From Bryobacteraceae bacterium (lineage in GTDB: Bacteria > Acidobacteriota > Terriglobia > Bryobacterales > Bryobacteraceae): a stretch of DNA of 64,000 nucleotides. Every line of letters starts with the position of its first letter. The stretch's first letter is position 1. Of the stretch, positions 27,116 to 58,875 are shown in pieces. Below the pieces are notes generated by a model. That model saw only the letters and a list, made by a program, of their open reading frames with translations, was not told the DNA's origin and ran no database searches. The stretch covers positions 3,332 through 67,331 of the forward strand of contig DATGGL010000129.1 of NCBI GenBank assembly GCA_035308605.1, in the 5' to 3' direction. The translations under genes and the position numbers were made by a program.

Positions 27116-27754
27116 TTAAGTCCCCTTCAGCACTTCGGCGATGTCCTTCTCGGGGATTGCGCCTTCTTTGATCACGCGCCAGTATGGTTCGGTTATGTCG
27201 ACCGTGGTGGCTCCCAGACCGGTGATGGCGCCGCAATCCAGCACCAGGTCGATCCGCCCGTCCATGGATCCGAACACGTCAATTCCGCTCGCGCAGGTCG
27301 GCATCCCCGAACGGTTGGCGCTGGTCGAGATCAGCGGCTGAGTCAGCCGTTCTAAGAGTGCGTTGGCGACTTTGGAGCGCGACTGGCGCATGGCCAGCCG
27401 TCCTGTGTTTCCCGTTACCTTAAGCGGTACGCGCGACGACGCCGGCGCGATGATCGCCAGCGGACCGGGCCAGAAATGCCGGGCCAGAAGATAGAACCGC
27501 CGGGGGATCTCCTTGACCATTTCCTCCGCCATCACCAGATCGCTGACCAGGAGGGGCAGGGAACGATCGATTTCCCGGCCTTTCGCCTCGCGCACGCGGC
27601 GCACGGCGTGCAAATTCAACGGGTCGGCTACGAGCGTATAGAGGGCGTCGGTGGGAATGGCGACGAGTCCACCGCGGCGCACCACAGCGGCGGCTCGTTC
27701 GATCGCGGTTTCGTCTGGACGCTCCGCATCGATTTCGATCAAATCGGTGGCCAC
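27116..27754 (-). CDS. tsaC: L-threonylcarbamoyladenylate synthase (YrdC/Sua5 family)
   Basis: GGLVAIPTDALYTLVADP, HFWPGPLAII, STSANRSG. GTG start. Confidence 0.85.
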   Translation of the reverse strand: MATDLIEIDAERPDETAIERAAAVVRRGGLVAIPTDALYTLVADPLNLHAVRRVREAKGREIDRSLPLLVSDLVMAEEMVKEIPRRFYLLARHFWPGPLAIIAPASSRVPLKVTGNTGRLAMRQSRSKVANALLERLTQPLISTSANRSGMPTCASGIDVFGSMDGRIDLVLDCGAITGLGATTVDITEPYWRVIKEGAIPEKDIAEVLKGT

Positions 27755-27894
27755 GTGAGAACTAGTTTAGCAGTGGGGGAGTGGAGGGCAGGGCGTGCAT
27801 TTCACTGCTCGGTAGGGCAGGTCCCCGACCTGGCGTTTGGGAGGCAGAAAGGCGTCTGTTTTGCGGGCCCGGCTCCATCCGAGCAGCAGCGGCA

Positions 27895-27951
27895 GCGGGA
27901 CAGATAGAATCGACGCGTTCGTCGCGAGTGCGTCGATTCTGTCTGCCCCGC
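27895..27951. repeat. 57-bp compact palindromic element (22-nt arms, 13-nt spacer)
   Basis: GCGGGACAGATAGAATCGACGC-GTTCGTCGCGAGT-GCGTCGATTCTGTCTGCCCCGC. The arms are 20/22 complementary. Same termini and spacer halves as the element at 28711..29067. A degenerate extra half-site lies at 27976..27998. Confidence 0.85.
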
Positions 27952-27985
27952 TTCTTTTCGGATAAAAAAATTGATGCGAGTCGCG

Positions 27986-28471
27986 TCAGTCTGTCCCCAT
28001 CGACTCCATCGACTCCGGCCCGCTTTTCTTCGTCCACGAGCCGAAGAGGGCACCGAGCGAATAGAAGACGGTTCGGAAAAGGGGAAGGGTTGTCTCGAAC
28101 CAATTCATGCAGGTCAATCCTGCCGGGTCCGTGACGCACGCAATCCCAGAGAATTGTGACCAGATCGCGCGTACGCCGACGTGGGGGAGGATAAGAGCTC
28201 GTGCTCCGAACCAACAAACGCCGATAAGCCATACCCATTTCGCGGATGTGAATTTCCATTTCCAGCACACGATGAATCCCGATAGGAACGCGATTGTGGT
28301 GGTAAAAAGATCCTCCTTCAGAAGAAGCATCTCACGCGTTTTGGGATGGATCGGCAAGACACGGTAGAGCGCCGACTCGATAATGACGGTTCCAAATACT
28401 GCTTGAAGCAAATTGAGTAAGTATGCTCCAGACACACGAACTAACTTGTACGGTTGACTGATTTGGATCAT
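27986..28471 (-). CDS. Hypothetical integral membrane protein (about 161 aa) in a low-GC patch
   Basis: About four hydrophobic segments (AYLLNLLQAVFGTVII, TTTIAFLSGFIVCW, WVWLIGVCWFGARALIL, LPLFRTVFYSLGALFG). ATG 28471 (a GTG at 28489 is possible). The last residues (ESMESM) are encoded by the tandem ATCGACTCC repeat next to a repeat half-site. Confidence 0.55.
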   Translation of the reverse strand: MIQISQPYKLVRVSGAYLLNLLQAVFGTVIIESALYRVLPIHPKTREMLLLKEDLFTTTIAFLSGFIVCWKWKFTSAKWVWLIGVCWFGARALILPHVGVRAIWSQFSGIACVTDPAGLTCMNWFETTLPLFRTVFYSLGALFGSWTKKSGPESMESMGTD

Positions 28472-28650
28472 CCGGCAACTCTTTAACACACCCTGCTGAC
28501 TGCCCCCCGGTTCCGTCCAACATCGTAGCCGAATTTGATGCCACTTCAGTCTGCCGCTTCGCCTTCATCTGAGACCCTCTTCACTCGGCCGGCTCTGGGT
28601 CAAGGGACATTGGGACGGACTGACTCGACTCGCGTAGATTGCTTCCAGTA

Positions 28651-28718
28651 GGGGTAGCGGGGTAGCGGGACAGGGTAGCGGCGAGCGGGACAGCGGGGTA
28701 GCGGGGGGTAGCGGGACA
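28651..28718 (+). repeat. G-tract array of reiterated GGGGTAGC / GCGGGACAG units
   Basis: GGGGTAGCGGGGTAGCGGGACAGGGTAGCGGCGAGCGGGACAGCGGGGTAGCGGGGGGTAGCGGGACAG. At least 8 runs of 3 or more G. The GCGGGACAG tip of the neighbouring inverted repeat occurs three times. Confidence 0.85.
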
Positions 28719-29067
28719 GACAGAATCGACGCGTTCGTCAATTTTGCGAAACCGGCAGACGGCTCCGTCCCCTTCGGCGATTTGGCTCGACGGAGTCGCG
28801 TCGAACGTTTTTTAGAGCCCCGCCATCTTACTACCCTGGCAACGCAAACCAGCAATGGGCGCACCGAAATCACGAGAGTATCTCGTCTCGTCCACAAGTA
28901 GCGCTCCGAAAGCGGGTAAGAATAACCCGGTTCTGACCTGAGGTGCCATCTGCGCCGAGCTGCCCGTTGACGGCGAGAAGCATAACAGGCCCAATATTCT
29001 CAAAAGGGGACGGAGCGATCCGTCCCCTTTGACGAATTCGCGAGTGCGTCGATTCTGTCTGTCCCGC
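28711..29067. repeat. 357-bp element bounded by perfect 22-bp inverted repeats (MITE-like, or a palindromic element carrying a 300-bp insert)
   Basis: GCGGGACAGACAGAATCGACGC at 28711..28732. Its exact reverse complement lies at 29046..29067. The inner flanks GTTCGTC and GCGAGT equal the two halves of the spacer of the 57-bp element. Confidence 0.85.
29003..29030. other. Perfect 12-bp hairpin capped by a GCGA (GNRA) tetraloop
   Basis: AAAGGGGACGGA-GCGA-TCCGTCCCCTTT. On the minus strand it is followed by TTTTG (terminator-like). TCCGTCCCCTT also occurs at 28764..28774. Confidence 0.6.
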
Positions 29068-29083
29068 TCTTGCCTTTGTCGTT

Positions 29084-29125
29084 CGTTTTGCCGTTTTGTG
29101 TTTTGCTCGTTTTGTGCGTTTTGCC
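29084..29125 (+). repeat. Degenerate tandem CGTTTTG(Y) repeats (CAAAACG on the minus strand), about 5 units
   Basis: CGTTTTGCCGTTTTGTGTTTTGCTCGTTTTGTGCGTTTTGCC, starting 17 nt after the right inverted repeat. Confidence 0.75.
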
Positions 29126-29177
29126 CCCACAATAAAGAAAAGGTGCAGGTTCGGGCTGACCCGCTCTTGATACAGCA

Positions 29178-29489
29178 TTGGCAATACATTTACAACCAGA
29201 TATTATCGCGACTTTGACGTTCCTGCCTTCTTCCGCCGGCGGCCGCTTGCATGCTGCAAGCGGCCCTTACTTAGGGGCCTTGATTGAGTTCGGAGGAGAA
29301 TACTTCGATTGCAGGGTCCTTCTCATAGAGTCGGGGCCGGTTGCCCCTGGGGAGCGCGTCACCGCCCCCATAAAGTTTCTTCGGCCGGAACTGATTAAAT
29401 CCCGCCTTAAGGTCGGCGATAGATTTCGTCTGCGCGAGGCACGAGTCATAGCGGAGGGCACAGTGGATGTCGTGTTAGGAGCTTATTAG
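29178..29489 (+). CDS. Hypothetical small protein, possibly a translation-factor-like beta-barrel (EF-Tu domain 3-like pattern)
   Basis: No ATG available; TTG 29178 is the first start. Pattern TLTFLPSSAGGR...PGERVTAPIKFLRPE...LKVGDRFRLREARVIAEGTV resembles the G.RF.(I/L)REG...G.G.V barrel motif. No obvious SD. Confidence 0.45.
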   Translation: MAIHLQPDIIATLTFLPSSAGGRLHAASGPYLGALIEFGGEYFDCRVLLIESGPVAPGERVTAPIKFLRPELIKSRLKVGDRFRLREARVIAEGTVDVVLGAY

Positions 29490-29547
29490 GAAAGAAAGGA
29501 CGAGACAGAACTGCCTTTCGGTCCCCGATCGTGCACAAAAAAGTAGT

Positions 29548-31422
29548 CTAGCTTCGTGACCCGATGGCTTCCGCGACCTCAATAGCCATCTGATAACGTC
29601 CAAAAGGAGCGCTTAACTGGACGCCTGCCACTAGGGAGTGCACCCGCTCTACCATTTCCCGGGCGATCGCCACGCCTTCGGCCCTAGCCGCCTCCGCGCT
29701 CTCGGCGCGGCGCATTCGGTCCATATATTCATCCGGAACGGGGACGCGCAGTTCGTTCACCATAAATTCGGCGTTGCGATAGCTGGTCAGCGGCCAGATT
29801 CCTGCGATCACGGGACGCCCGTATTGCTCGGTCCGCTTGAGAAAACCTTCGAGCAGATCCAGATCGAACACCGGCTGCGTGACGACGTATTCCGCGCCCG
29901 CTTTCATCTTCCATTCGAAGCGGCGCAATTCTTCGTCCATGTTCAGGGCGCCGGGATTCGCTCCCACGCCGATCAGGAGCGCGGTCTGCGATCCGATCGG
30001 ATTGCCGCCGAGATCCATTCCGTGATTCAGATTATTGACGATATTCGTGAGCCCTATGGCGTCCACGTCGAACACCGCGGTCGCGTCGGGATACGTCCCC
30101 ATACGCGGTGGATCGCCGGTAATGCAGATCAAATTCTTTACGCCGACCGTGTAAGCGCCCAGCAGCTCACTTTGAATGCTCAGGATATTGCGATCGCGGC
30201 AGCAGAAGTGGAGCACTGCTTCAATCTCCGCCTGCTGTTGAATTAGCTGGCAGGTGACCTGAGCGCTCATCCGCGCACTGGCTCGGGGGCCGTCGGGGAC
30301 ATTAATGCAGTCGATTCCTGCCGCTTTACATAACTTGGCGCCTTCGATCTCTTTGGACGCGTCAACTCCGCGCGGCGGCAGAATCTCGACAAAAGCCACG
30401 AATTGCCTGGCCGCGAGTTTCGCCCCGAGCGTGCTCTTGCGATCGACCGGGACTTTTTCGAGCGCTTTCGGCCTCGATGCCGGTTCATCCACCGTGACGG
30501 CGTGCGCCTGCTGGATGTGTTGCAGGCTGCGCGCTTCGGATCGGATTTCCTTGATGTGCTCCGCCGTGGTCCCGCAGCACCCGCCGACGATCGTGACGCC
30601 GGCCATCAGGAAACGGCGGGCGTACTGAGCCATATATTCCGGCGAGCACAGATAGATGTTGCGGCCCTCGAACGTGGTCGGCAAGCCCGCGTTGGGCATC
30701 GCGCTGAGCGGCTTGGTGGTGTGCCCGACGATCTTCTCTATGGTTTCGAGCATCACTTTCGGACCAGAGGAACAGTTGAGTCCGATGATGTCGACCGGCC
30801 ATTCGTTCAGGCGCTGGGTGAAATCGAGCGTCGAGGTGCCATCGCGCAGCCGGCCGTCGTCTTCGATACTGAGCTGCGCCATGATGACGATATCATTGCC
30901 GGCGGCTTCGCGCGCCGCCAGAATCGCTTCGCGTATTTCGTTGGCATCGCGAAATGTTTCGAGAACCAGAAGGTCAATTCCGGCTTCGACCAGCGCTTCT
31001 ATCTGCTCGCGGAAAACAGCCCGGGCTTCCTCGAAACTCGTCGGCCCCAGGGGCTCCAGGCGGATTCCAAGCGGACCAACGGCTCCTGCGACGAACGCCT
31101 GATCGCGGGCAGCCTCGCGGGCGATCCTCACGCCGGCCTGATTGATCAGGCGGACTTTGTCGGCGAATCCGAACGCCGCCAGGCGTTTTCGGTTCGCGCC
31201 GAAGGTATTGGTTTCGAGGATCTCCGCGCCAGCCTTGACGTATTCCTGGTGAACGTCGCGCACCAGGGCGGGCAGCGAGAGATTCAGCTCGTCATAGCAG
31301 CGGTTGATGAATACGCCCTTGGCGTACAGCGCGGTTCCCATGGCTCCATCGGCCACAAGAACGCGCTTGCCGAGCCCTTCGCGAAATTCCGCGGCTCTTG
31401 TCTGCATTACTGTTGTTGGCAT
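29548..31422 (-). CDS. yitJ: Bifunctional homocysteine S-methyltransferase / 5,10-methylenetetrahydrofolate reductase (YitJ-type fusion)
   Basis: N-terminal Hcy-binding domain (VLVADGAMGTALY, ETNTFGAN, GLNCSSGP, VGGCCGTT), followed by an MTHFR domain (FVEILPPRG, INVPDGPRA, HFCCRDRN). ATG 31422 lies 4 nt after the Uma2 stop. Confidence 0.85.
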   Translation of the reverse strand: MPTTVMQTRAAEFREGLGKRVLVADGAMGTALYAKGVFINRCYDELNLSLPALVRDVHQEYVKAGAEILETNTFGANRKRLAAFGFADKVRLINQAGVRIAREAARDQAFVAGAVGPLGIRLEPLGPTSFEEARAVFREQIEALVEAGIDLLVLETFRDANEIREAILAAREAAGNDIVIMAQLSIEDDGRLRDGTSTLDFTQRLNEWPVDIIGLNCSSGPKVMLETIEKIVGHTTKPLSAMPNAGLPTTFEGRNIYLCSPEYMAQYARRFLMAGVTIVGGCCGTTAEHIKEIRSEARSLQHIQQAHAVTVDEPASRPKALEKVPVDRKSTLGAKLAARQFVAFVEILPPRGVDASKEIEGAKLCKAAGIDCINVPDGPRASARMSAQVTCQLIQQQAEIEAVLHFCCRDRNILSIQSELLGAYTVGVKNLICITGDPPRMGTYPDATAVFDVDAIGLTNIVNNLNHGMDLGGNPIGSQTALLIGVGANPGALNMDEELRRFEWKMKAGAEYVVTQPVFDLDLLEGFLKRTEQYGRPVIAGIWPLTSYRNAEFMVNELRVPVPDEYMDRMRRAESAEAARAEGVAIAREMVERVHSLVAGVQLSAPFGRYQMAIEVAEAIGSRS

Positions 31423-31426
31423 CGTG

Positions 31427-31933
31427 TCAATCAAAAATCTCGCCGAGCGGGATCTCAATCGCCGGCGCGGAGGTGCGGAGGATTCCGTCTTGAATCAGAC
31501 GCATTCCCTCGGAGGTGTAGCTGAAAGCCTGCTTCGTTTTGGGGTCCAAGATCCAAACGTAGCGCACTCCAAAGGCGAGATAATCGACGATCTTTTTCTG
31601 CATCCGGCTCATCCGGTCTTCAGGCGAAAGCACCTCGATGCACACCAGGGGAGGGCGCGAAATAATCTGCTCATTCGGCTTGCTTCCCAACAGAATCATG
31701 AGATCCGGCACGCGATACTGCCTCGAGTTGACCTGGAGCCGCTGTTCCTGGATGATCGTCACACCCAACTGCTTCTCTCGTGCGGCGACGTAAAGTAAAA
31801 TCGCCCTTTGAATCCACGCGTGATCGAGTTCCCCCACGTTCCGATCCAGCACCTCCCCGTCCACGTATTCGCAGTCCGGGTCGTAGCTGGTCCGGAGGTA
31901 CTCGTCGACCGATACCTGGGTCGTAACCGCCAT
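31427..31933 (-). CDS. Uma2-family (DUF820) putative restriction-fold endonuclease
   Basis: VSVDEYL...YDPDCEYVDGEV...IIQEQRLQV...RVPDLMI...PPLVCIEVLSPEDR pattern (PD-(D/E)xK-like). Confidence 0.75.
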   Translation of the reverse strand: MAVTTQVSVDEYLRTSYDPDCEYVDGEVLDRNVGELDHAWIQRAILLYVAAREKQLGVTIIQEQRLQVNSRQYRVPDLMILLGSKPNEQIISRPPLVCIEVLSPEDRMSRMQKKIVDYLAFGVRYVWILDPKTKQAFSYTSEGMRLIQDGILRTSAPAIEIPLGEIFD

Positions 31934-31969
31934 ACTTAATACAATAGCGCGGGATACAATCGCGCGGGT

Positions 31970-32803
31970 TCAAAGCCACCCAGGGAACGGGTTCCGCGAT
32001 CCTCCGCGACTGCTTTCGATTAGCGCCGGCACCCGTTTCGAGCGTGCGAGCAGCTTTTCCAGCAAATCGGACAAAGCCGCCTCTTCGCCTTCGAGCCAGG
32101 CCGGAGGAATCTGTTTCACCGCCTGGTCGACTACTTCTTCAGGAAAATGCACAATTCGATCCAGCCACGGCTGGAAATCGTCGAGGCTGCGAATCGACCG
32201 GTACACCAAGGGCCGGAAATACAGGCCGTACAAAGGCGAATCGTTGAGTTTCCAATGGGGACCTTCGAAGATGAATCCGTGGTCGACCATGTGCGCGACA
32301 AACCCAATCCGCTGACCGTGCGAACCCGAATTCGGCAGCCATTCTTTCAACCTTGCGCGAAAGAAGACAGCCTGGCGGGAATCGGCATTTCCTGTCCATT
32401 TATCGAACGCCAGCGCACCGCAAAAATCTCCGATGTTTTCGACTTGTCCCAGCAGCGTATCGGGCAGAAAATCGTACACTACATTCACCGACGGGTTGCC
32501 CGGAAAGCGTGATCCGAAATGCCAGCCCGGCGTAACGGCATTGCGCCGCCAGCCTAGCTGGATATGCACCTCCGGGTTGGCCCGCAGGAATTCTTCCGAG
32601 ATGCGAACAATAGCCACCTCCGGTGTCGAGATTCCCAAATAACTCAGGAACGCCGACCCGATCCATTCGTTCACCAGAATCCGTCGATGCTGGGGATTAT
32701 TGAGAAATTTGACGACGTAAAAGTTGCCGTCGCTGGCTTCAATCAAGTGGGCCTGCGCTCCGCCGCGCATTTTGCGAACCAGACGTCGGGCGTCCACTGG
32801 CAT
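31970..32803 (-). CDS. HipA-like protein kinase-fold protein
   Basis: RGGAQAHLIEASDGNFYVVKFLNNPQHRRILVNEWIGSAFLSYLGI and FDKWTGNADSRQ (catalytic-loop-like D..N.D), as in HipA-like kinases that lack the HipA N-domain. Confidence 0.6.
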   Translation of the reverse strand: MPVDARRLVRKMRGGAQAHLIEASDGNFYVVKFLNNPQHRRILVNEWIGSAFLSYLGISTPEVAIVRISEEFLRANPEVHIQLGWRRNAVTPGWHFGSRFPGNPSVNVVYDFLPDTLLGQVENIGDFCGALAFDKWTGNADSRQAVFFRARLKEWLPNSGSHGQRIGFVAHMVDHGFIFEGPHWKLNDSPLYGLYFRPLVYRSIRSLDDFQPWLDRIVHFPEEVVDQAVKQIPPAWLEGEEAALSDLLEKLLARSKRVPALIESSRGGSRNPFPGWL

Positions 32804-32841
32804 GGGCGAAAGCGGAGCGAATCGAGTACCTTAGAGATTAT

Positions 32842-33075
32842 ATGACGGAAGAAAAAGACACCACTCCCGGCGCCTCGCCAAAAGCGTCCTTGAATCAGGA
32901 CGAAGTCGCGCTGGAGCTGATGCGATTCATCGCGCAAACCACTGGAATCGGCAAGACCTCGTCTGGGGCTGGATTCGGCGGCAAGAGTCCTAAGACGCCC
33001 GAGGAACAAGTGGACACACTTATCCAACTCTATGAGCGCTGTCGCGCGGTGGTGGGACCCAAAGCAGGAAGCTGA
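32842..33075 (+). CDS. Hypothetical small protein (77 aa)
   Basis: ATG start, divergent from the HipA-like gene. No domain recognised. Followed by a GC hairpin. Confidence 0.35.
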   Translation: MTEEKDTTPGASPKASLNQDEVALELMRFIAQTTGIGKTSSGAGFGGKSPKTPEEQVDTLIQLYERCRAVVGPKAGS

Positions 33076-33096
33076 GAAGGGTAACTGACGGAGGAC

Positions 33097-33118
33097 GGGG
33101 TCGGACCAGCCCGACCCC
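33097..33118. terminator. GC-rich hairpin between convergent genes
   Basis: GGGGTCGG-ACCAGC-CCGACCCC (8-bp stem). No U-tract on either strand. Confidence 0.35.
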
Positions 33119-33135
33119 AGACAACAGGAAAACGC

Positions 33136-33633
33136 CTATTTCTTCTTCTTGCCGCCTTTTTTTGCGGCCTTTTTAACCGCTTTTTTGGCTGGAGCCTTCT
33201 TCGCCGCTTTTTTGGCTGGAGCTTTCTTAGCAGCCTTTTTCGCCGGGGCCTTCTTGGCGGCTTTCTTGGGAGCTGCCTTCTTCGCGGCAACTTTCTTAGC
33301 GGCAGGTTTCTTTGCCGCTACTTTCTTGGGGGCAGCTTTCTTGGGCTCAGCCGCCTTCGGAGCGGCCTTCGCCGCGGGAGCTTTCGGAGCCGCCGCTTTC
33401 TTCGGCGCGGAAGCCTTCTTGGCAGGCTTCTTCACGGGAGCCGGTTCGGCCTCCCCAGCCACAGGAGCAGGGACCACGACGGCAACGACCGGAGTGACCG
33501 TGGTCACGATCAGCTCGTCTTCTTCTTCCTCTTCCATTCCGTAGTCGCCCATATCGTCGTCCACGTTGATGGTTGCTCCTTCCTCGAAATCGTCGAGCTC
33601 GTCGTCTTCGACCGAAAGTCGATACTCAAGCAT
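33136..33633 (-). CDS. Bipartite protein: highly acidic N-terminal part + histone-H1/AlgP-like Lys/Ala/Pro repeat tail
   Basis: GAGGAGG SD 12 nt upstream of the ATG. N-terminal DDELDDFEEG...DDDMGDYGMEEEEEDE. C-terminal about 95 aa of KKAA/KKAP units including three AKKAPAKKA repeats, ending KKGGKKKK. Confidence 0.75.
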   Translation of the reverse strand: MLEYRLSVEDDELDDFEEGATINVDDDMGDYGMEEEEEDELIVTTVTPVVAVVVPAPVAGEAEPAPVKKPAKKASAPKKAAAPKAPAAKAAPKAAEPKKAAPKKVAAKKPAAKKVAAKKAAPKKAAKKAPAKKAAKKAPAKKAAKKAPAKKAVKKAAKKGGKKKK

Positions 33634-33741
33634 GAAGTTTTTGCCTCCTCGCAGGCGTAATCAGAGATTAGAATATATCGCGCTTCAGCATGAAGGCAAG
33701 GAAAAAGTGCCCGATGGCCGAGGGTTGGGGTTACCCGAGCA

Positions 33742-35571
33742 TCAGCTCGCGCGCGGCGCCGGTGTTGTTTTGGTCTGCGTGGCGGCTTTTCCGGTAGATT
33801 TGTGCGCGGGCGCGGGCGATTTTTTCCGCGGAACTCCCGCGGCAACTTTCTGTGGCGCGCTTTTCTGAGACACACCCTTCTGAGACACACCCTTCTGCGT
33901 CGCCTTCGACGTGGCTGTGGAGGATGTTGTGGATGATGCCGGCTTCGCAGGAGCCCTTCGTGATGGCGTGCTCGCTGTGGTCTTGGCCCTGGGCGACACC
34001 CCGCCGCTGGTCGCGGACCGGCGCCGGGCTGCCGTCACCGGCTTAGCCACACGGTCACCCGGGTAACCGACCGGAATCGCTGCAAATTCGCCCGCGCCTG
34101 GCAACATCTCATGATTGGCCGAACTGAGCGAGGATAACTGCGCGCTATAGCGCTTCGACAGCGCCGCGAACGTCTCGCCATCCTGAACCCGGTGCACACG
34201 CCAGGAGTCGCGCCGGTTCGGCGGAATCACCGCAAAGGCCGATTCGAGCGCAGGCAGCGTTCCCTTCGGGACGTGCACCTTATATCCCGCGGGCGCAACC
34301 GACTTGAATAACGCAGGATTCAGCTCTTTCAATTCGCTCATCGGACGATCCACTGCATCGGCCACCAGCGCGAGATGAGTAGGCGTCTGCAATTCCAGCG
34401 TGTCGAATTCGAGCGGCCGTTCGAGTTCCAGGTTATCCAGGCCATAATCCTTGGCGTTTTTCGCCATGATGGTCATCGCCAGGATCACCGGCACGTAATT
34501 GCTCGTCTCCAGCGGCAGGACATTCAGGCGCCGCAGGGCCCAATAGTCGGCATACCCCGTCCGCATCACCGCGTGATCCACGCAGCCCGGGCCGCAATCG
34601 TAAGCCGCCAATGCAAGGTACCAATCGCCAAAATGTTCGTATAAATCGTGCAGATGACGGGCCGCCGCGCGCGTGGCTTTCTCCGGATCCATGCGATCGT
34701 CGGTGGCCGGAGTCTGATCGAGACCGTATTCCTTACCGCGGAACCTGGCGAACTGCCACAAGCCCACGCAAGCCTTGTTCGACATCGCACGCGGAAAGAA
34801 CCCGGATTCCTGCTGGGCGACGAAGATGAGTTCGAGCGGAAGGCCCTCCTCTTTCAAGATCCGTTCGATGAGATCTTTGTACCGGCCCTGGCGGCGCAGG
34901 CCCGCGGCCAGAATTTTCTTGCCCCGTTCGCTGGAGAAAAAATGAATCGCGCCAATGACAGCATCGCTCTCTTCCAGGGGCAGCTGCGAAACCGTCGCGC
35001 GGATCTGTTCGCTCACTTTGTTGCGTAGCGTCGGATCCACCGGGAAGGTCATGTCGAGAATGCCTTCCATGGGCGGCCGGTCGTAGGAAACCTTGTCGTC
35101 CGGTTCGCCGGAGCCGAGTTGATCGACATCGTAGCGATAGATGGTCTGGATCAACTCCTCAAGCCGCTTTTCCACTCGCGAGCGATCGGCAACGTTGTCG
35201 GGAGCGTTCAGAAGCGTTTCGATGGCGCGGTTAAATTCCCGGCGCGCGTCACCGGCCCGGCCTTCCGTGAACGCCTGCTTTCCGGCGGCCAGACGATCGT
35301 CGGCCTGTTTTACCAGGAAATCGGCATCGCTGGGGCGGGGAACAGCGGGCAGCATTGGGGTGAGAAACGGCACCTCGTTCGCGTACAGATCGGATTCAAT
35401 ACGAGGCGGTTCGCTCAGCGGATCATCCGCCGGTGCAGCCGTATGCGATTGAGGAGGAAGGAAAAAAGTGCGGAACTGCTGGGGCCGTGCAGTGGTGGCG
35501 CAACTCGAAGCAACAACCGATGCCACAACAGCTACACCAACCCGGATGCGGGAGTATCCGGCGGTTCGCAT
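33742..35571 (-). CDS. MltD-like lytic murein transglycosylase with LysM domain and basic low-complexity tail
   Basis: Lipoprotein-like N-terminus (VASSCAT). SLT motif AQQESGFFPRAMSNKACVGLWQF. LysM-like HRVQDGETFAALSKRY. Tail KGVSQKGVSQKSAPQK arises from a 15-nt tandem duplication at 33865..33894. Confidence 0.8.
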   Translation of the reverse strand: MRTAGYSRIRVGVAVVASVVASSCATTARPQQFRTFFLPPQSHTAAPADDPLSEPPRIESDLYANEVPFLTPMLPAVPRPSDADFLVKQADDRLAAGKQAFTEGRAGDARREFNRAIETLLNAPDNVADRSRVEKRLEELIQTIYRYDVDQLGSGEPDDKVSYDRPPMEGILDMTFPVDPTLRNKVSEQIRATVSQLPLEESDAVIGAIHFFSSERGKKILAAGLRRQGRYKDLIERILKEEGLPLELIFVAQQESGFFPRAMSNKACVGLWQFARFRGKEYGLDQTPATDDRMDPEKATRAAARHLHDLYEHFGDWYLALAAYDCGPGCVDHAVMRTGYADYWALRRLNVLPLETSNYVPVILAMTIMAKNAKDYGLDNLELERPLEFDTLELQTPTHLALVADAVDRPMSELKELNPALFKSVAPAGYKVHVPKGTLPALESAFAVIPPNRRDSWRVHRVQDGETFAALSKRYSAQLSSLSSANHEMLPGAGEFAAIPVGYPGDRVAKPVTAARRRSATSGGVSPRAKTTASTPSRRAPAKPASSTTSSTATSKATQKGVSQKGVSQKSAPQKVAAGVPRKKSPAPAHKSTGKAATQTKTTPAPRAS

Positions 35572-35666
35572 TTCCTAAAGGCTAGAGTTTAACAGATTTA
35601 TGACTGGATAAGTCAAATAGAAATTCTCTGGTTGCAGTTTGCACCAGAATGCATTATTCATTGAAT

Positions 35667-35912
35667 ATGCCCACACTCCAGGTACGCGACGTTCCAGAGC
35701 ACATATATCGGGCTCTCGCCGAGCAAGCCGAACGCGAGCGAAGGAGCCTGGCGCAGCAGACAGTGGCGGTCCTGGCCCGGGGGCTGAACCTCGAAACCGA
35801 CGCGAAAGCCCGGCGAAAGAAAGTGCTCGATGCGGTGCAGTCCGCCGATCACGCTGCTTACGGAGCCTTGCCAGATCCAGTAAAGATGATTCGCGAGGAT
35901 CGCAAGCGGTGA
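35667..35912 (+). CDS. vapB: Ribbon-helix-helix antitoxin (VapB/FitA-like)
   Basis: MPTLQVRDVPEHIYRALAEQAERERRSLAQQ. The stop overlaps the GTG of the PIN gene (GTGA). Confidence 0.75.
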   Translation: MPTLQVRDVPEHIYRALAEQAERERRSLAQQTVAVLARGLNLETDAKARRKKVLDAVQSADHAAYGALPDPVKMIREDRKR

Positions 35913-36307
35913 GGTGCGTTCTGGACGCAAGCGCCGCGATCGAAGTCGCCATGGCTCGCGGTAAAGCTGCAACTCTGGTTCAACCGCTGCGCGATGCCGA
36001 TTTCGTCCTGGCGCCCGATCTGCTTGTGCCCGAGGTATTGAACGCCGTTTGGAAATATCACCAGTTCAACAATCTCAGCCTGCCCGATTGTGACCGCGTG
36101 GTTGAATTGACGCTGGAGCTGGTCGATGAGTTCGTGCCTTCCTCGAAACTCTATCGCGACGCCTTTCTTCTGGCGCGAACCGCCCACAGACCGGTTTACG
36201 ACATGTTCTATCTCGCGCTCGCCCGCCATGAGGACGCGGCATTGGTGACCATGGACGGTACCTTAAAGAAAGAGGCCGAGAAGCAAGGAGTCCAGGTGAT
36301 CGGATGA
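35909..36307 (+). CDS. vapC: PIN-domain toxin (VapC family)
   Basis: [12 protein letters not shown] (first acidic residue), ...[14 protein letters not shown]..., ...[10 protein letters not shown]..., ...[11 protein letters not shown] 35909 is in frame within track ORF 35639..36307. Confidence 0.75.
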
Positions 36308-36723
36308 AGAGCTACCGCAAGGAACTATGGTTTGAGATCCCCTCCCGAAGAGCGTTCGTGAACATTACCGGCGAGGTCGAGGCGTGCCTCCGCGAAAGCG
36401 GCATTTCGGAAGGCCTGGTCCTGGTCAACGCCATGCACATTACCGCCTCGGTCTTCATTAACGACGACGAAAGCGGTCTGCATCAGGACTACGAGAAGTG
36501 GCTGGAGAAGCTGGCGCCTCACGAGCCGGTTTCTCAGTACCTGCACAATCGCACCGGCGAAGACAACGCGGACGCGCACATGAAGCGTCAGGTGATGGGC
36601 AGGGAAGTGGTGGTGGCGGTGACCAAGGGAAAGCTCGATTTCGGTCCCTGGGAGCAGATCTTCTACGGCGAATTCGACGGGCGGCGGCGGAAGCGCGCGC
36701 TGGTTAAGATAATCGGCGAGTAA
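36304..36723 (+). CDS. yjbQ: YjbQ/UPF0047-family protein (secondary thiamine-phosphate synthase)
   Basis: VNITGEV...[20 protein letters not shown]...[14 protein letters not shown]...[13 protein letters not shown]. The ATG overlaps the vapC stop (ATGA). Confidence 0.85.
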
Positions 36724-58798: not shown

Positions 58799-58875
58799 TG
58801 GTGGGCTTGACAGAACTCGAATCTGTGACCTCCTGCGTGTCAAGCAGGCGCTCTAACCAACTGAGCTACAAGCCC
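58799..58875 (-). tRNA. tRNA-Val (anticodon GAC), CCA encoded
   Basis: Reverse complement is GGGCTTGTAGCTCAGTTGGTTAGAGCGCCTGCTTGACACGCAGGAGGTCACAGATTCGAGTTCTGTCAAGCCCACCA. It folds by hand into a cloverleaf: acceptor 7 bp, D 4 bp, anticodon stem CCTGC/GCAGG with loop TTGACAC, T stem ACAGA/TCTGT. Confidence 0.95.

Follow-up and report, generated by a model that had tools for sequence, protein, structure and literature searches.

Palindromic repeats in a Bryobacteraceae contig as probable relics of the TIRtron/TIRYT family of transposase elements

The palindromic locus and its constituents

The DNA considered here is a 64,000-nucleotide (nt) stretch of contig DATGGL010000129.1 of a Bryobacteraceae bacterium, which is referred to as the window and in which all coordinates are counted from the first letter. 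It contains two palindromic sequences of unequal length, a short form and a long form, which have the same inverted ends. Based upon their comparison with related loci from other genomes and metagenomes, this locus very probably holds relics of the TIRtron/TIRYT family, a variety of REPtrons in which the gene for a RAYT-type Y1 (HUH) transposase is framed by terminal inverted repeats (TIRs) of about 75 bp. In a preliminary description of this DNA the palindromes were assigned to no recognised family, whereas the family identified here matches the described TIRtrons/TIRYTs, with their GGGGWSAS sequence and Acidobacteria group (PMC3733652; PMC6006769). It is thus of an already described kind, and the finding, while real, is largely ordinary. 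The outermost part of each inverted repeat is a 20-mer (GGGACAGNCAGAATCGACGC), which we will refer to as Box A, and a second sequence (GCTCCGTCCC), referred to as Box B, lies farther in. The features of the locus formed by these boxes, or adjoining or enclosed by them, are as follows.

27894-27952: short form, in which two Box A copies face each other with their inner (3') ends across the spacer GTTCGTC+GCGAGT; Box B is lacking
27897-27916, plus strand: Box A copy GGGACAGATAGAATCGACGC with one mismatch, preceded by GCAGC/GGCAGC repeats (27880-27896)
27930-27949, minus strand: Box A copy GGGGCAGACAGAATCGACGC with one mismatch
27978-27997, minus strand: degenerate Box A variant GGGACAGACTGACGCGACTC, with four mismatches to the 20-mer core and an outer tandem unit, GGAGTCGAT, present twice at 27998-28016
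28612-28631, plus strand: another degenerate variant of Box A, GGGACGGACTGACTCGACTC, which forms an inverted pair with that at 27978-27997
28649-28712, plus strand: junction array along the long form's outer edge, consisting of about seven units GGGGTAGC mixed with partial Box A starts (GGGACAG) and fitting a G-quadruplex motif
28710-29068: long form; both complete inverted ends (Box A and Box B) around a 229-bp interior
28713-28732, plus strand: exact Box A, in the end that lies 3' of the dead gene
28758-28774, plus strand: Box B, GACGGCTCCGTCCCCTT, with a core, GCTCCGTCCC, that begins 49 nt from the Box A start
28823-28999, minus strand: putative remnant of a Y1 (RAYT-type) transposase gene, about residues 83-141 of 225
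29004-29020, minus strand: Box B, within a perfect local hairpin (GGGGACGGA-TCGC-TCCGTCCCC)
29046-29065, minus strand: exact Box A, in the end that lies 5' of the dead gene
29069-29131, minus strand: junction array outside the right end, abutting its outer edge, with degenerate GCAAAAC-type units as read on the minus strand
29150-29169, minus strand: degenerate duplicate of the outer junction, CAAGAGC+GGGTCAGCCCGAA vs CAAGAGC+GGGACAGACAGAA (85%)

The two forms have in common a 22-mer, GCGGGACAGACAGAATCGACGC, which is present without change at 28711-28732 (plus) and 29046-29067 (minus) in the long form, and with one mismatch each at 27895-27916 (plus) and 27930-27951 (minus) in the short form. 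These four occurrences in the window compare with an expectation of zero, and none of 100 dinucleotide shuffles contained a match at up to three mismatches. The 22-mers of the short form are separated by the 13 nt of GTTCGTC+GCGAGT, and in the long form the same two strings bracket exactly 300 bp (28740-29039). Both observations had been made in the preliminary description and are borne out. The arms of the short form are 28 nt long (27894-27921 and 27925-27952), 86% complementary and separated by a 3-nt gap, and those of the long form (28710-28774 and 29004-29068) consist of 65 nt with 77% complementarity. No further copies of the arms or of the 300-bp insert were found elsewhere in the window.

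The inventory of copies given earlier was correct for those it listed, including a half-site at 27976-27998 that is real and corresponds to the variant at 27978-27997, but it overlooked the variant at 28612-28631, the duplicate at 29150-29169, the Box B in each arm and the transposase fragment. The two variants share a 4-nt deletion relative to Box A, and the outer ends of both point toward a low-GC (guanine plus cytosine) open reading frame (ORF) that is described below.

An element family with a Y1 transposase gene

The distribution of these repeats was examined by an exact-pattern scan of 185,579 species genomes with GGGRCAGAYAGAATCGACGC, which led to eight stretches, and by a scan of JGI metagenome contigs with GGGACAGNCAGAATCGACGC, which led to 49 stretches, mainly from soil and peat. 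The resulting 57 loci with 20-mer matches, together with other stretches compared with the window, are designated here by labels such as L008. Five of the genome stretches are from metagenome-assembled genomes (MAGs) of Bryobacteraceae, Bryobacterales or Terriglobia, and the other three are apparent chance matches in coding sequence. About 45 of the metagenome stretches represent copies of the family; L001, L003 and L007 (genomes) and L012, L018, L024 and L056 (metagenomes) were left out as chance or coding-sequence matches. These results bear upon the simplest alternative, namely that the locus has no mobile origin and is simply a local duplication or a structural palindrome. All of the window copies do lie within 1.3 kb and the 57-bp form is unique to the locus, but the core 20-mer of the 22-mer, whose confinement to this locus the preliminary description had named as grounds for such a view, is present in unrelated contexts in five Acidobacteriota MAGs and 49 metagenome stretches, and a local origin is extremely improbable.

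In the relatives, the repeats delimit elements of about 0.9 kb with TIRs of about 75 bp. Inverted pairs of Box A and Box B frame an ORF of 224-228 amino acids (aa) in eight distinct cases (L002, L005, L008, L015, L035, L045, L051, and L058); L022 and L034 have the same architecture and are duplicates of two of these eight. The position of Box B is nearly invariant: counted from the start of the repeat, its core begins at 48-50 nt in each of the 31 transposase-proximal ends, the two arms of the window included, and at 49 nt in 28 of them. The ORFs match the Pfam family Y1_Tnp (E about 1e-13) and, with scores of 84.6 and 75.6 bits against a cutoff of 80, the NCBIfam model for the REP-associated tyrosine transposase (REP_Tyr_transpos). 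The NCBIfam IS200 model gave only 18-23 bits with the same ORFs (cutoff 55). NHVH (the HUH motif), WQ, and either YVEANP or YVETNP (the Y motif) are found in all eight distinct proteins, and the intact transposases are extended C-terminally by about 90 aa. When PDB sequences were searched with an intact transposase, nothing was returned at E values up to 0.1. Thus, an autonomous copy with a transposase between the same termini, for which the preliminary description had proposed to look, is present in related genomes (e.g., L002, L005, and L008). The earlier suggestion that the window carries non-autonomous members of a mobile-element family is borne out.

The order and spacing of the parts of the long form match those of the eight intact elements, with 229 bp in place of the gene. 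When the intact transposases were used as tblastn queries, the best match in the window was located within these 229 bp (28945-28823, minus strand; YSYPLSERYLWT vs YSCPLSERRLWT), with E values of 0.019 against the window and 3e-7 against the insert alone. With a profile of the eight intact proteins, a fragment at 28999-28568 (minus strand) gave an E value of 0.0031, in comparison to 0.79 for the next-best six-frame fragment. The remnant, as aligned (HLRSEPGYSYPLSERYLWT vs HLWQNRFYSCPLSERRLWT), lacks the HUH motif, and its catalytic Tyr motif is destroyed. Additionally, the sequence inside the right-hand Box B (TTTTGAGAATATTGG) resembles the side of the intact elements that is 5' to the gene (TTGAGAAGAATCGG), whereas that inside the left-hand Box B (TTCGGCGATTTGG) resembles the 3' side (TTCGCGGTTCTAG); this polarity of the arms predicts a gene on the minus strand, in agreement with the strand of the remnant. 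Because the skeleton is complete and the interior holds the window's best transposase match, we read the long form, from its sequence, as a decayed TIRtron that was internally deleted with the loss of about 500 bp of its gene. The earlier statement that the window has no transposase remains correct in that no intact gene is present, but it missed this fragment inside the 300 bp. Independent internal deletions are seen elsewhere in L036 (329 bp, with the first 21 codons and the last few retained) and L032 (263 bp), and L054 has a 5'-truncated transposase gene; decayed copies are common in the family (L036, L032, L044, and L054).

For the short form, the 300 bp that separate the two strings in the long form are informative. 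As the inner portions usual for the element are present in them (a Box B on each side, and the gene remnant), the short form is the derived state, and we infer that it was produced by a further deletion, which left the two Box A tips together with the first seven and last six bases of the spacer. The preliminary description had proposed either a longer element with a deletion derivative or a hairpin with an insertion in its loop; the former relationship is borne out, and the latter is the less likely direction given the Box B pair and gene remnant. The deletion junction displays one base (C) of microhomology. Since each arm of the short form carries one substitution, this form was not freshly copied from the long form next to it. 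No second Box A doublet with the 57-bp spacing was found in the 57 loci, where this arrangement is limited to the present locus (the window, L009, and L010; L011 ends inside it). The series from an intact element through an internally deleted one to a bare repeat doublet indicates how REP-like hairpin doublets can arise from gene-bearing elements and, together with an empty site in sister lineages, it provides a clean decay series for a poorly studied branch of Y1-transposase elements.

Both palindromes have predicted folds that are much stronger than those of shuffled sequences on both strands, with values of -25.7 kcal/mol (z = -6.0) for the short form as single-stranded DNA and -171 kcal/mol (z = -6.2) for the long form as RNA. 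Such folds (z about -6), and a T-rich run that follows the short hairpin on the plus strand, would be expected if the 357-bp form were the gene for a structured non-coding RNA that a long stem closes, and the 57-bp hairpin were its terminator or processing site, or if the locus were a hairpin with an unrelated insertion in its loop. This explanation is nevertheless very improbable. A search of 27600-29400 at E values up to 10 gave just two chance-level matches and no Rfam family, and the sole match in the whole window at the gathering threshold is a tRNA far from the palindromes (58802-58875, minus strand). Only the ends are conserved among the window, L036 and L032, their interiors being unconserved, and debris of a coding gene is present inside. 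Scans for terminators and promoters gave counts at chance level. The consensus fold of 26 element ends contained only the invariant GGGAC/GTCCC pairing and zero covarying pairs, and hence no structural claim is made.

A classical MITE (a miniature transposable element with inverted repeats) derived from an insertion sequence (IS) with a DDE transposase, having TIRs and a target-site duplication and mobilised in trans, would account for perfect 22-bp inverted termini and two size classes. The absence of a direct target duplication, the flanks being ...GGCAGC / GCTTCT... and ...GGTAGC / GCTCTT..., argues against this type of MITE, and in every intact relative the ends flank a Y1 rather than a DDE gene, with no DDE case in the 57 loci. 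This origin for the palindromes can virtually be discounted.

Dispersal of the family is evident within single contigs, as L043 and L047 lie on one 299-kb contig, L037 and L042 on another, and L054 has two sites 5.7 kb apart. Solo units of Box A and Box B, away from the gene, occur at many metagenome loci. In a second class of solo ends, Box B is about 91 nt from the start of Box A, the interior is conserved (ACTCGAAAATCGGAAAAACGAGCGCGATAAAC...), and the tail is like the 3' end of the transposase gene. This class, present in L013, L014, L019, L021, L023, L025-L029, L031, L033, L039, L048, and L057, appears to be the one with the widest dispersal among the family's non-coding forms. In L002 (1-1600), L015 (306-431), and L051 (4448-4660), two adjacent Y1 genes or fragments have Box A copies between them and are divergent paralogues, not identical copies.

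Junction arrays and the lineage-specific block

Outside almost every Box A, two to seven tandem copies of a 7-10-nt unit abut the GGG with which the repeat begins. The units are specific to subfamilies. Examples of them are GGTCGAAA, GGCCGAGA, GGCTGAAG, GGATCGAGA, GGCGACA, and GGTTGAAA, and those in the window are GGGTAGC, GCAAAAC-like sequences, GGCAGC, and GGAGTCGAT. Arrays were noted at 28649-28712, 29069-29131, 27880-27896, and 27998-28016 of the window, at L005 3690-3754 and L008 5264-5330, and in L047, L058, and others. For periods of 7-12 nt, at least two units are present in 35 of 65 distinct flanks vs 4.6% of random windows, and at least three units in 15 of the 65 vs 0.37%. The consensus of positions -10 to -1 is GGGGYCGAAR and that of the unit is GGG-Y-C-G-A-R-R, with C-G-A at positions -5 to -3 in 45-59 of the 65 copies. 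A canonical G-quadruplex motif was found in 14 of the flanks (22%) vs 0.26% of controls. Three copies of one subfamily on a 299-kb contig all have the unit GGTTGAAA, in one, three and five copies, and their homology stops at the start of the array; as one unit type is found in all three, the unit belongs to the element. Some duplications take in the start of Box A (its first 5-17 nt), for example GGGAC, GGGACAG, and up to GGGACAGACAGAATCGA in L013.

The arrays are unstable and differ between strains that are only about 1.5% apart. L010 and the window differ by about 1.5% substitutions, including 10 of 639 positions in the TsaC gene, all of them at third codon positions. In L010 the left edge of the short form carries a perfect 15-nt tandem duplication that spans the junction, and the right edge a 23-nt insertion (window 27870-27960 vs L010 700-870). 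Three substitutions are located inside the 57-nt palindrome, whereas elsewhere over 2.4 kb only two single-base indels were seen.

The simplest cause of the arrays is replication slippage beside a hairpin-forming, G-rich end, and the evidence allows this equally. It is possible, albeit doubtful, that they are a footprint of the Y1 transposase at the element boundary (from repeated cutting and mis-rejoining, or from restart of synthesis) or iteron-like recognition sites. That they are fixed iteron-like binding sites is unlikely, because the two ends of one element can differ (in L008, GGGACGAGG vs GGTTCAAG) and the copy number ranges from one to seven. A complementarity between the outer unit and the sequence following Box B was also considered; it reflected a shared CGA-type consensus without covariation and was dropped. 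Such outer arrays are not mentioned in the text of PMC3733652 or PMC6006769, and they may be a new feature. If the footprint explanation were true, the arrays would mark the cleavage site and ongoing activity of TIRYT enzymes. As a cheap, hypervariable marker they could serve to locate the cleavage site and reveal recent activity in genomes and metagenomes.

The palindromes and arrays are part of a larger block, the remaining features of which are listed below.

27793-29547: lineage-specific 1.76-kb block, between a homocysteine-methyltransferase/MTHFR gene (29548-31458, minus strand) and a TsaC/Sua5-family gene (27116-27754, minus strand)
27986-28489, minus strand: low-GC ORF of 167 aa (161-165 aa in other gene calls), outside the elements
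29178-29489, plus strand: second orphan ORF of 103 aa, not gene-called on the near-identical contig L009

The block comprises both palindromic forms, the Box A variants and these two ORFs. The preliminary description had proposed to seek empty sites in sister strains, and such sites are seen in L067 and L068 (TsaC 93% identical) and L069 (91%), where the MTHFR-fusion and TsaC genes are just 50-73 nt apart and homology to the window ends at about 27792 and about 29555; the empty-site stretches are L067 430-504 and L069 936-988. As the flanking genes are adjacent in the sister lineages, the whole 1.76-kb block is a lineage-specific gain. The nearest named TsaC homologues are 84-86% identical. 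Relatives with 85-86% identity in TsaC were unusable as empty sites, having other upstream neighbours and no Box A. In L065/L066 (1-6000; TsaC 85%) the segment from YjbQ to the MTHFR fusion, which corresponds to about 29548-36723 of the window, is inverted relative to TsaC; this inversion predates the block, since the closer relatives L067 and L069 have the window's orientation without the repeat block. At the edges of the block, about 100 bp (27793-27893) and about 380 bp (29170-29547) are of unrecognisable origin.

Among near-identical strains, L009 holds the block (99.97% identical), whereas the contigs of L010 and L011 break at 28681 and 27914, respectively. Metagenome contigs break here, in the junction array or Box A, because the repeats disrupt short-read assembly.

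The low-GC gene that the palindromes had been said to bracket does have a GC content of about 0.47-0.50, compared to 0.59 for the window, but it is an orphan ORF for which no homologue was found among 5.8 billion proteins; both it and the 103-aa ORF returned only themselves. It has no Pfam or NCBIfam match. Compared with strain L010, it shows eight substitutions, five of them at third codon positions. Annotations of this locus should thus treat the "low-GC gene" as an unsupported orphan ORF. Genes of the toxin-antitoxin type (PIN + RHH, HipA_2, and Uma2) are located within 8 kb of the block, at about 31427-35900 of the window (from gene calls at L009 1448-6328).

Evaluation and comparison with known systems

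By analogy with the biochemistry of IS200/IS605 and of the Escherichia coli TnpA-REP system (PMC3333891), the ends, as single-stranded DNA, would be bound by an intact transposase of the family if one is encoded elsewhere in the genome. This enzyme would cut them at the outer edge of Box A and could then move or rearrange them in trans. A deletion between the first seven and last six bases of the spacer would leave the two Box A tips as a near-perfect hairpin, and repeated duplications spanning the junction could give rise to the extra degenerate Box A copies and the outer tandem arrays. The copies in the window are most likely inert relics, for which hairpin or cruciform formation is the only plausible present activity.

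A number of observations weigh against the assignment of the locus to the TIRtron/TIRYT family. The gene remnant is short and, taken alone, weak (13.9 bits, E 0.003); no intact transposase was found in the window, so that the organism's partner enzyme is a putative one. The window copies begin with GGGACAG (three Gs) after ...AGC and are without the CGA-type outer unit of most others. A Pfam scan of the C-terminal extension at E values up to 10 revealed no match, including to HTH or Bac_DnaA_C, and no biochemical activity of TIRYTs is stated in the cited literature. The comparison with MITEs made in the preliminary description was right in outline, but the idea of the short form as itself a mobile, propagating MITE is unsupported, as no second 57-bp copy was found. 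Lastly, the paired transposase genes of L002, L015, and L051 are closer to an insertion sequence than to the picture of a single-copy RAYT.

The last point leads to the alternative that the family is a true IS, i.e., an autonomous IS200/IS605-like element with unusual inverted ends, and that the window contains ordinary dead IS copies. Adjacent or multiple transposase genes per contig (L002, L015, L033, and L051), the many decayed copies noted above, and the lineage-specific pattern of insertion are all consistent with it. Against this, the scores with the IS200 model are far below its cutoff whereas the RAYT model gives 76-85 bits, IS200/IS605 elements are without terminal inverted repeats (PMC6006769), and the neighbouring genes of L002 are divergent paralogues instead of identical copies. 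We consider a true IS unlikely, and it departs from the TIRtron/TIRYT explanation mainly in lifestyle and not in structure.

TIRtrons, or TIRYTs (TIR-associated tyrosine transposases), were the names given by Di Nocera et al. (2013) to RAYT-like genes that are flanked by long inverted repeats and not by REPs (PMC3733652). According to that study, many TIRs share GGGGWSAS, the TIRYTs of Acidobacteria form a sharply defined group, and TIRs occur as singles, dimers and groups (PMC3733652). The present elements agree in having a RAYT-like Y1 gene with long inverted repeats in place of short REP hairpins, and in their host phylum, Acidobacteria. The start GGGG[AT][CG]A[CG] is likewise shared, with GGGGACAG in many copies of the family, and the four main Box A copies of the window, which read (C)GGGACAG or GGGGCAG, conform at seven of its eight positions. 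Gene-free repeats are found in both cases as singles, dimers and clusters, the window displaying a dimer and clustered copies. The examples given in the text of PMC3733652 include neither the present Box A/Box B family nor its hosts, the Bryobacteraceae. Quentin et al. (2018) placed 20 of 26 TIRYT examples in subclass 2.1 of TnpA-REP, to which they also assigned the RAYT group 1 of Bertels et al. (2017; PMC5581495). Y---NP is the Y motif of class 2, and subclass 2.1 has a C-terminal extension with HTH or Bac_DnaA_C-like similarity (PMC6006769). The proteins of the relatives have both Y---NP and an extension of about 90 aa, but no HTH similarity was detected in it.

The REPIN-RAYT systems, or REPtrons (Nunvar 2010, PMC2817692; Bertels and Rainey 2011, PMC3116915; Ton-Hoang 2012, PMC3333891), have the same class of enzyme and a gene flanked by its own inverted repeats, and their non-coding doublets fold into a long hairpin like that of the 57-bp form. 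They differ in that each of their repeats forms a short, imperfect palindrome tagged 5' with GTAG, and in that their doublets replicate as units and are highly abundant, whereas Box A is not self-complementary and lacks GTAG, no second 57-bp doublet was found in the 57 loci, and the single cluster in the 64-kb window gives no hint of copies by the hundreds. A single-copy, vertically inherited transposase gene is expected for REPIN-RAYT, and the adjacent paralogues in L002, L015, and L051 hint otherwise.

The IS200/IS605 elements and their miniature derivatives, with subterminal hairpins at the element ends and no terminal inverted repeats, have the same type of Y1 HUH transposase and likewise cause no target duplication. 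A conserved, family-specific sequence is present beside their left end (TTAC, the target of IS608), comparable to the C-G-A found here, but their ends are not inverted repeats and the present protein fails the IS200 model. The junction arrays can also be compared with the iterons of other HUH enzymes, which are likewise short, lineage-specific direct repeats beside the expected HUH cut site. Iterons adjoin the nick site of the geminivirus and circovirus Rep proteins and of the HUH enzymes of rolling-circle plasmids.

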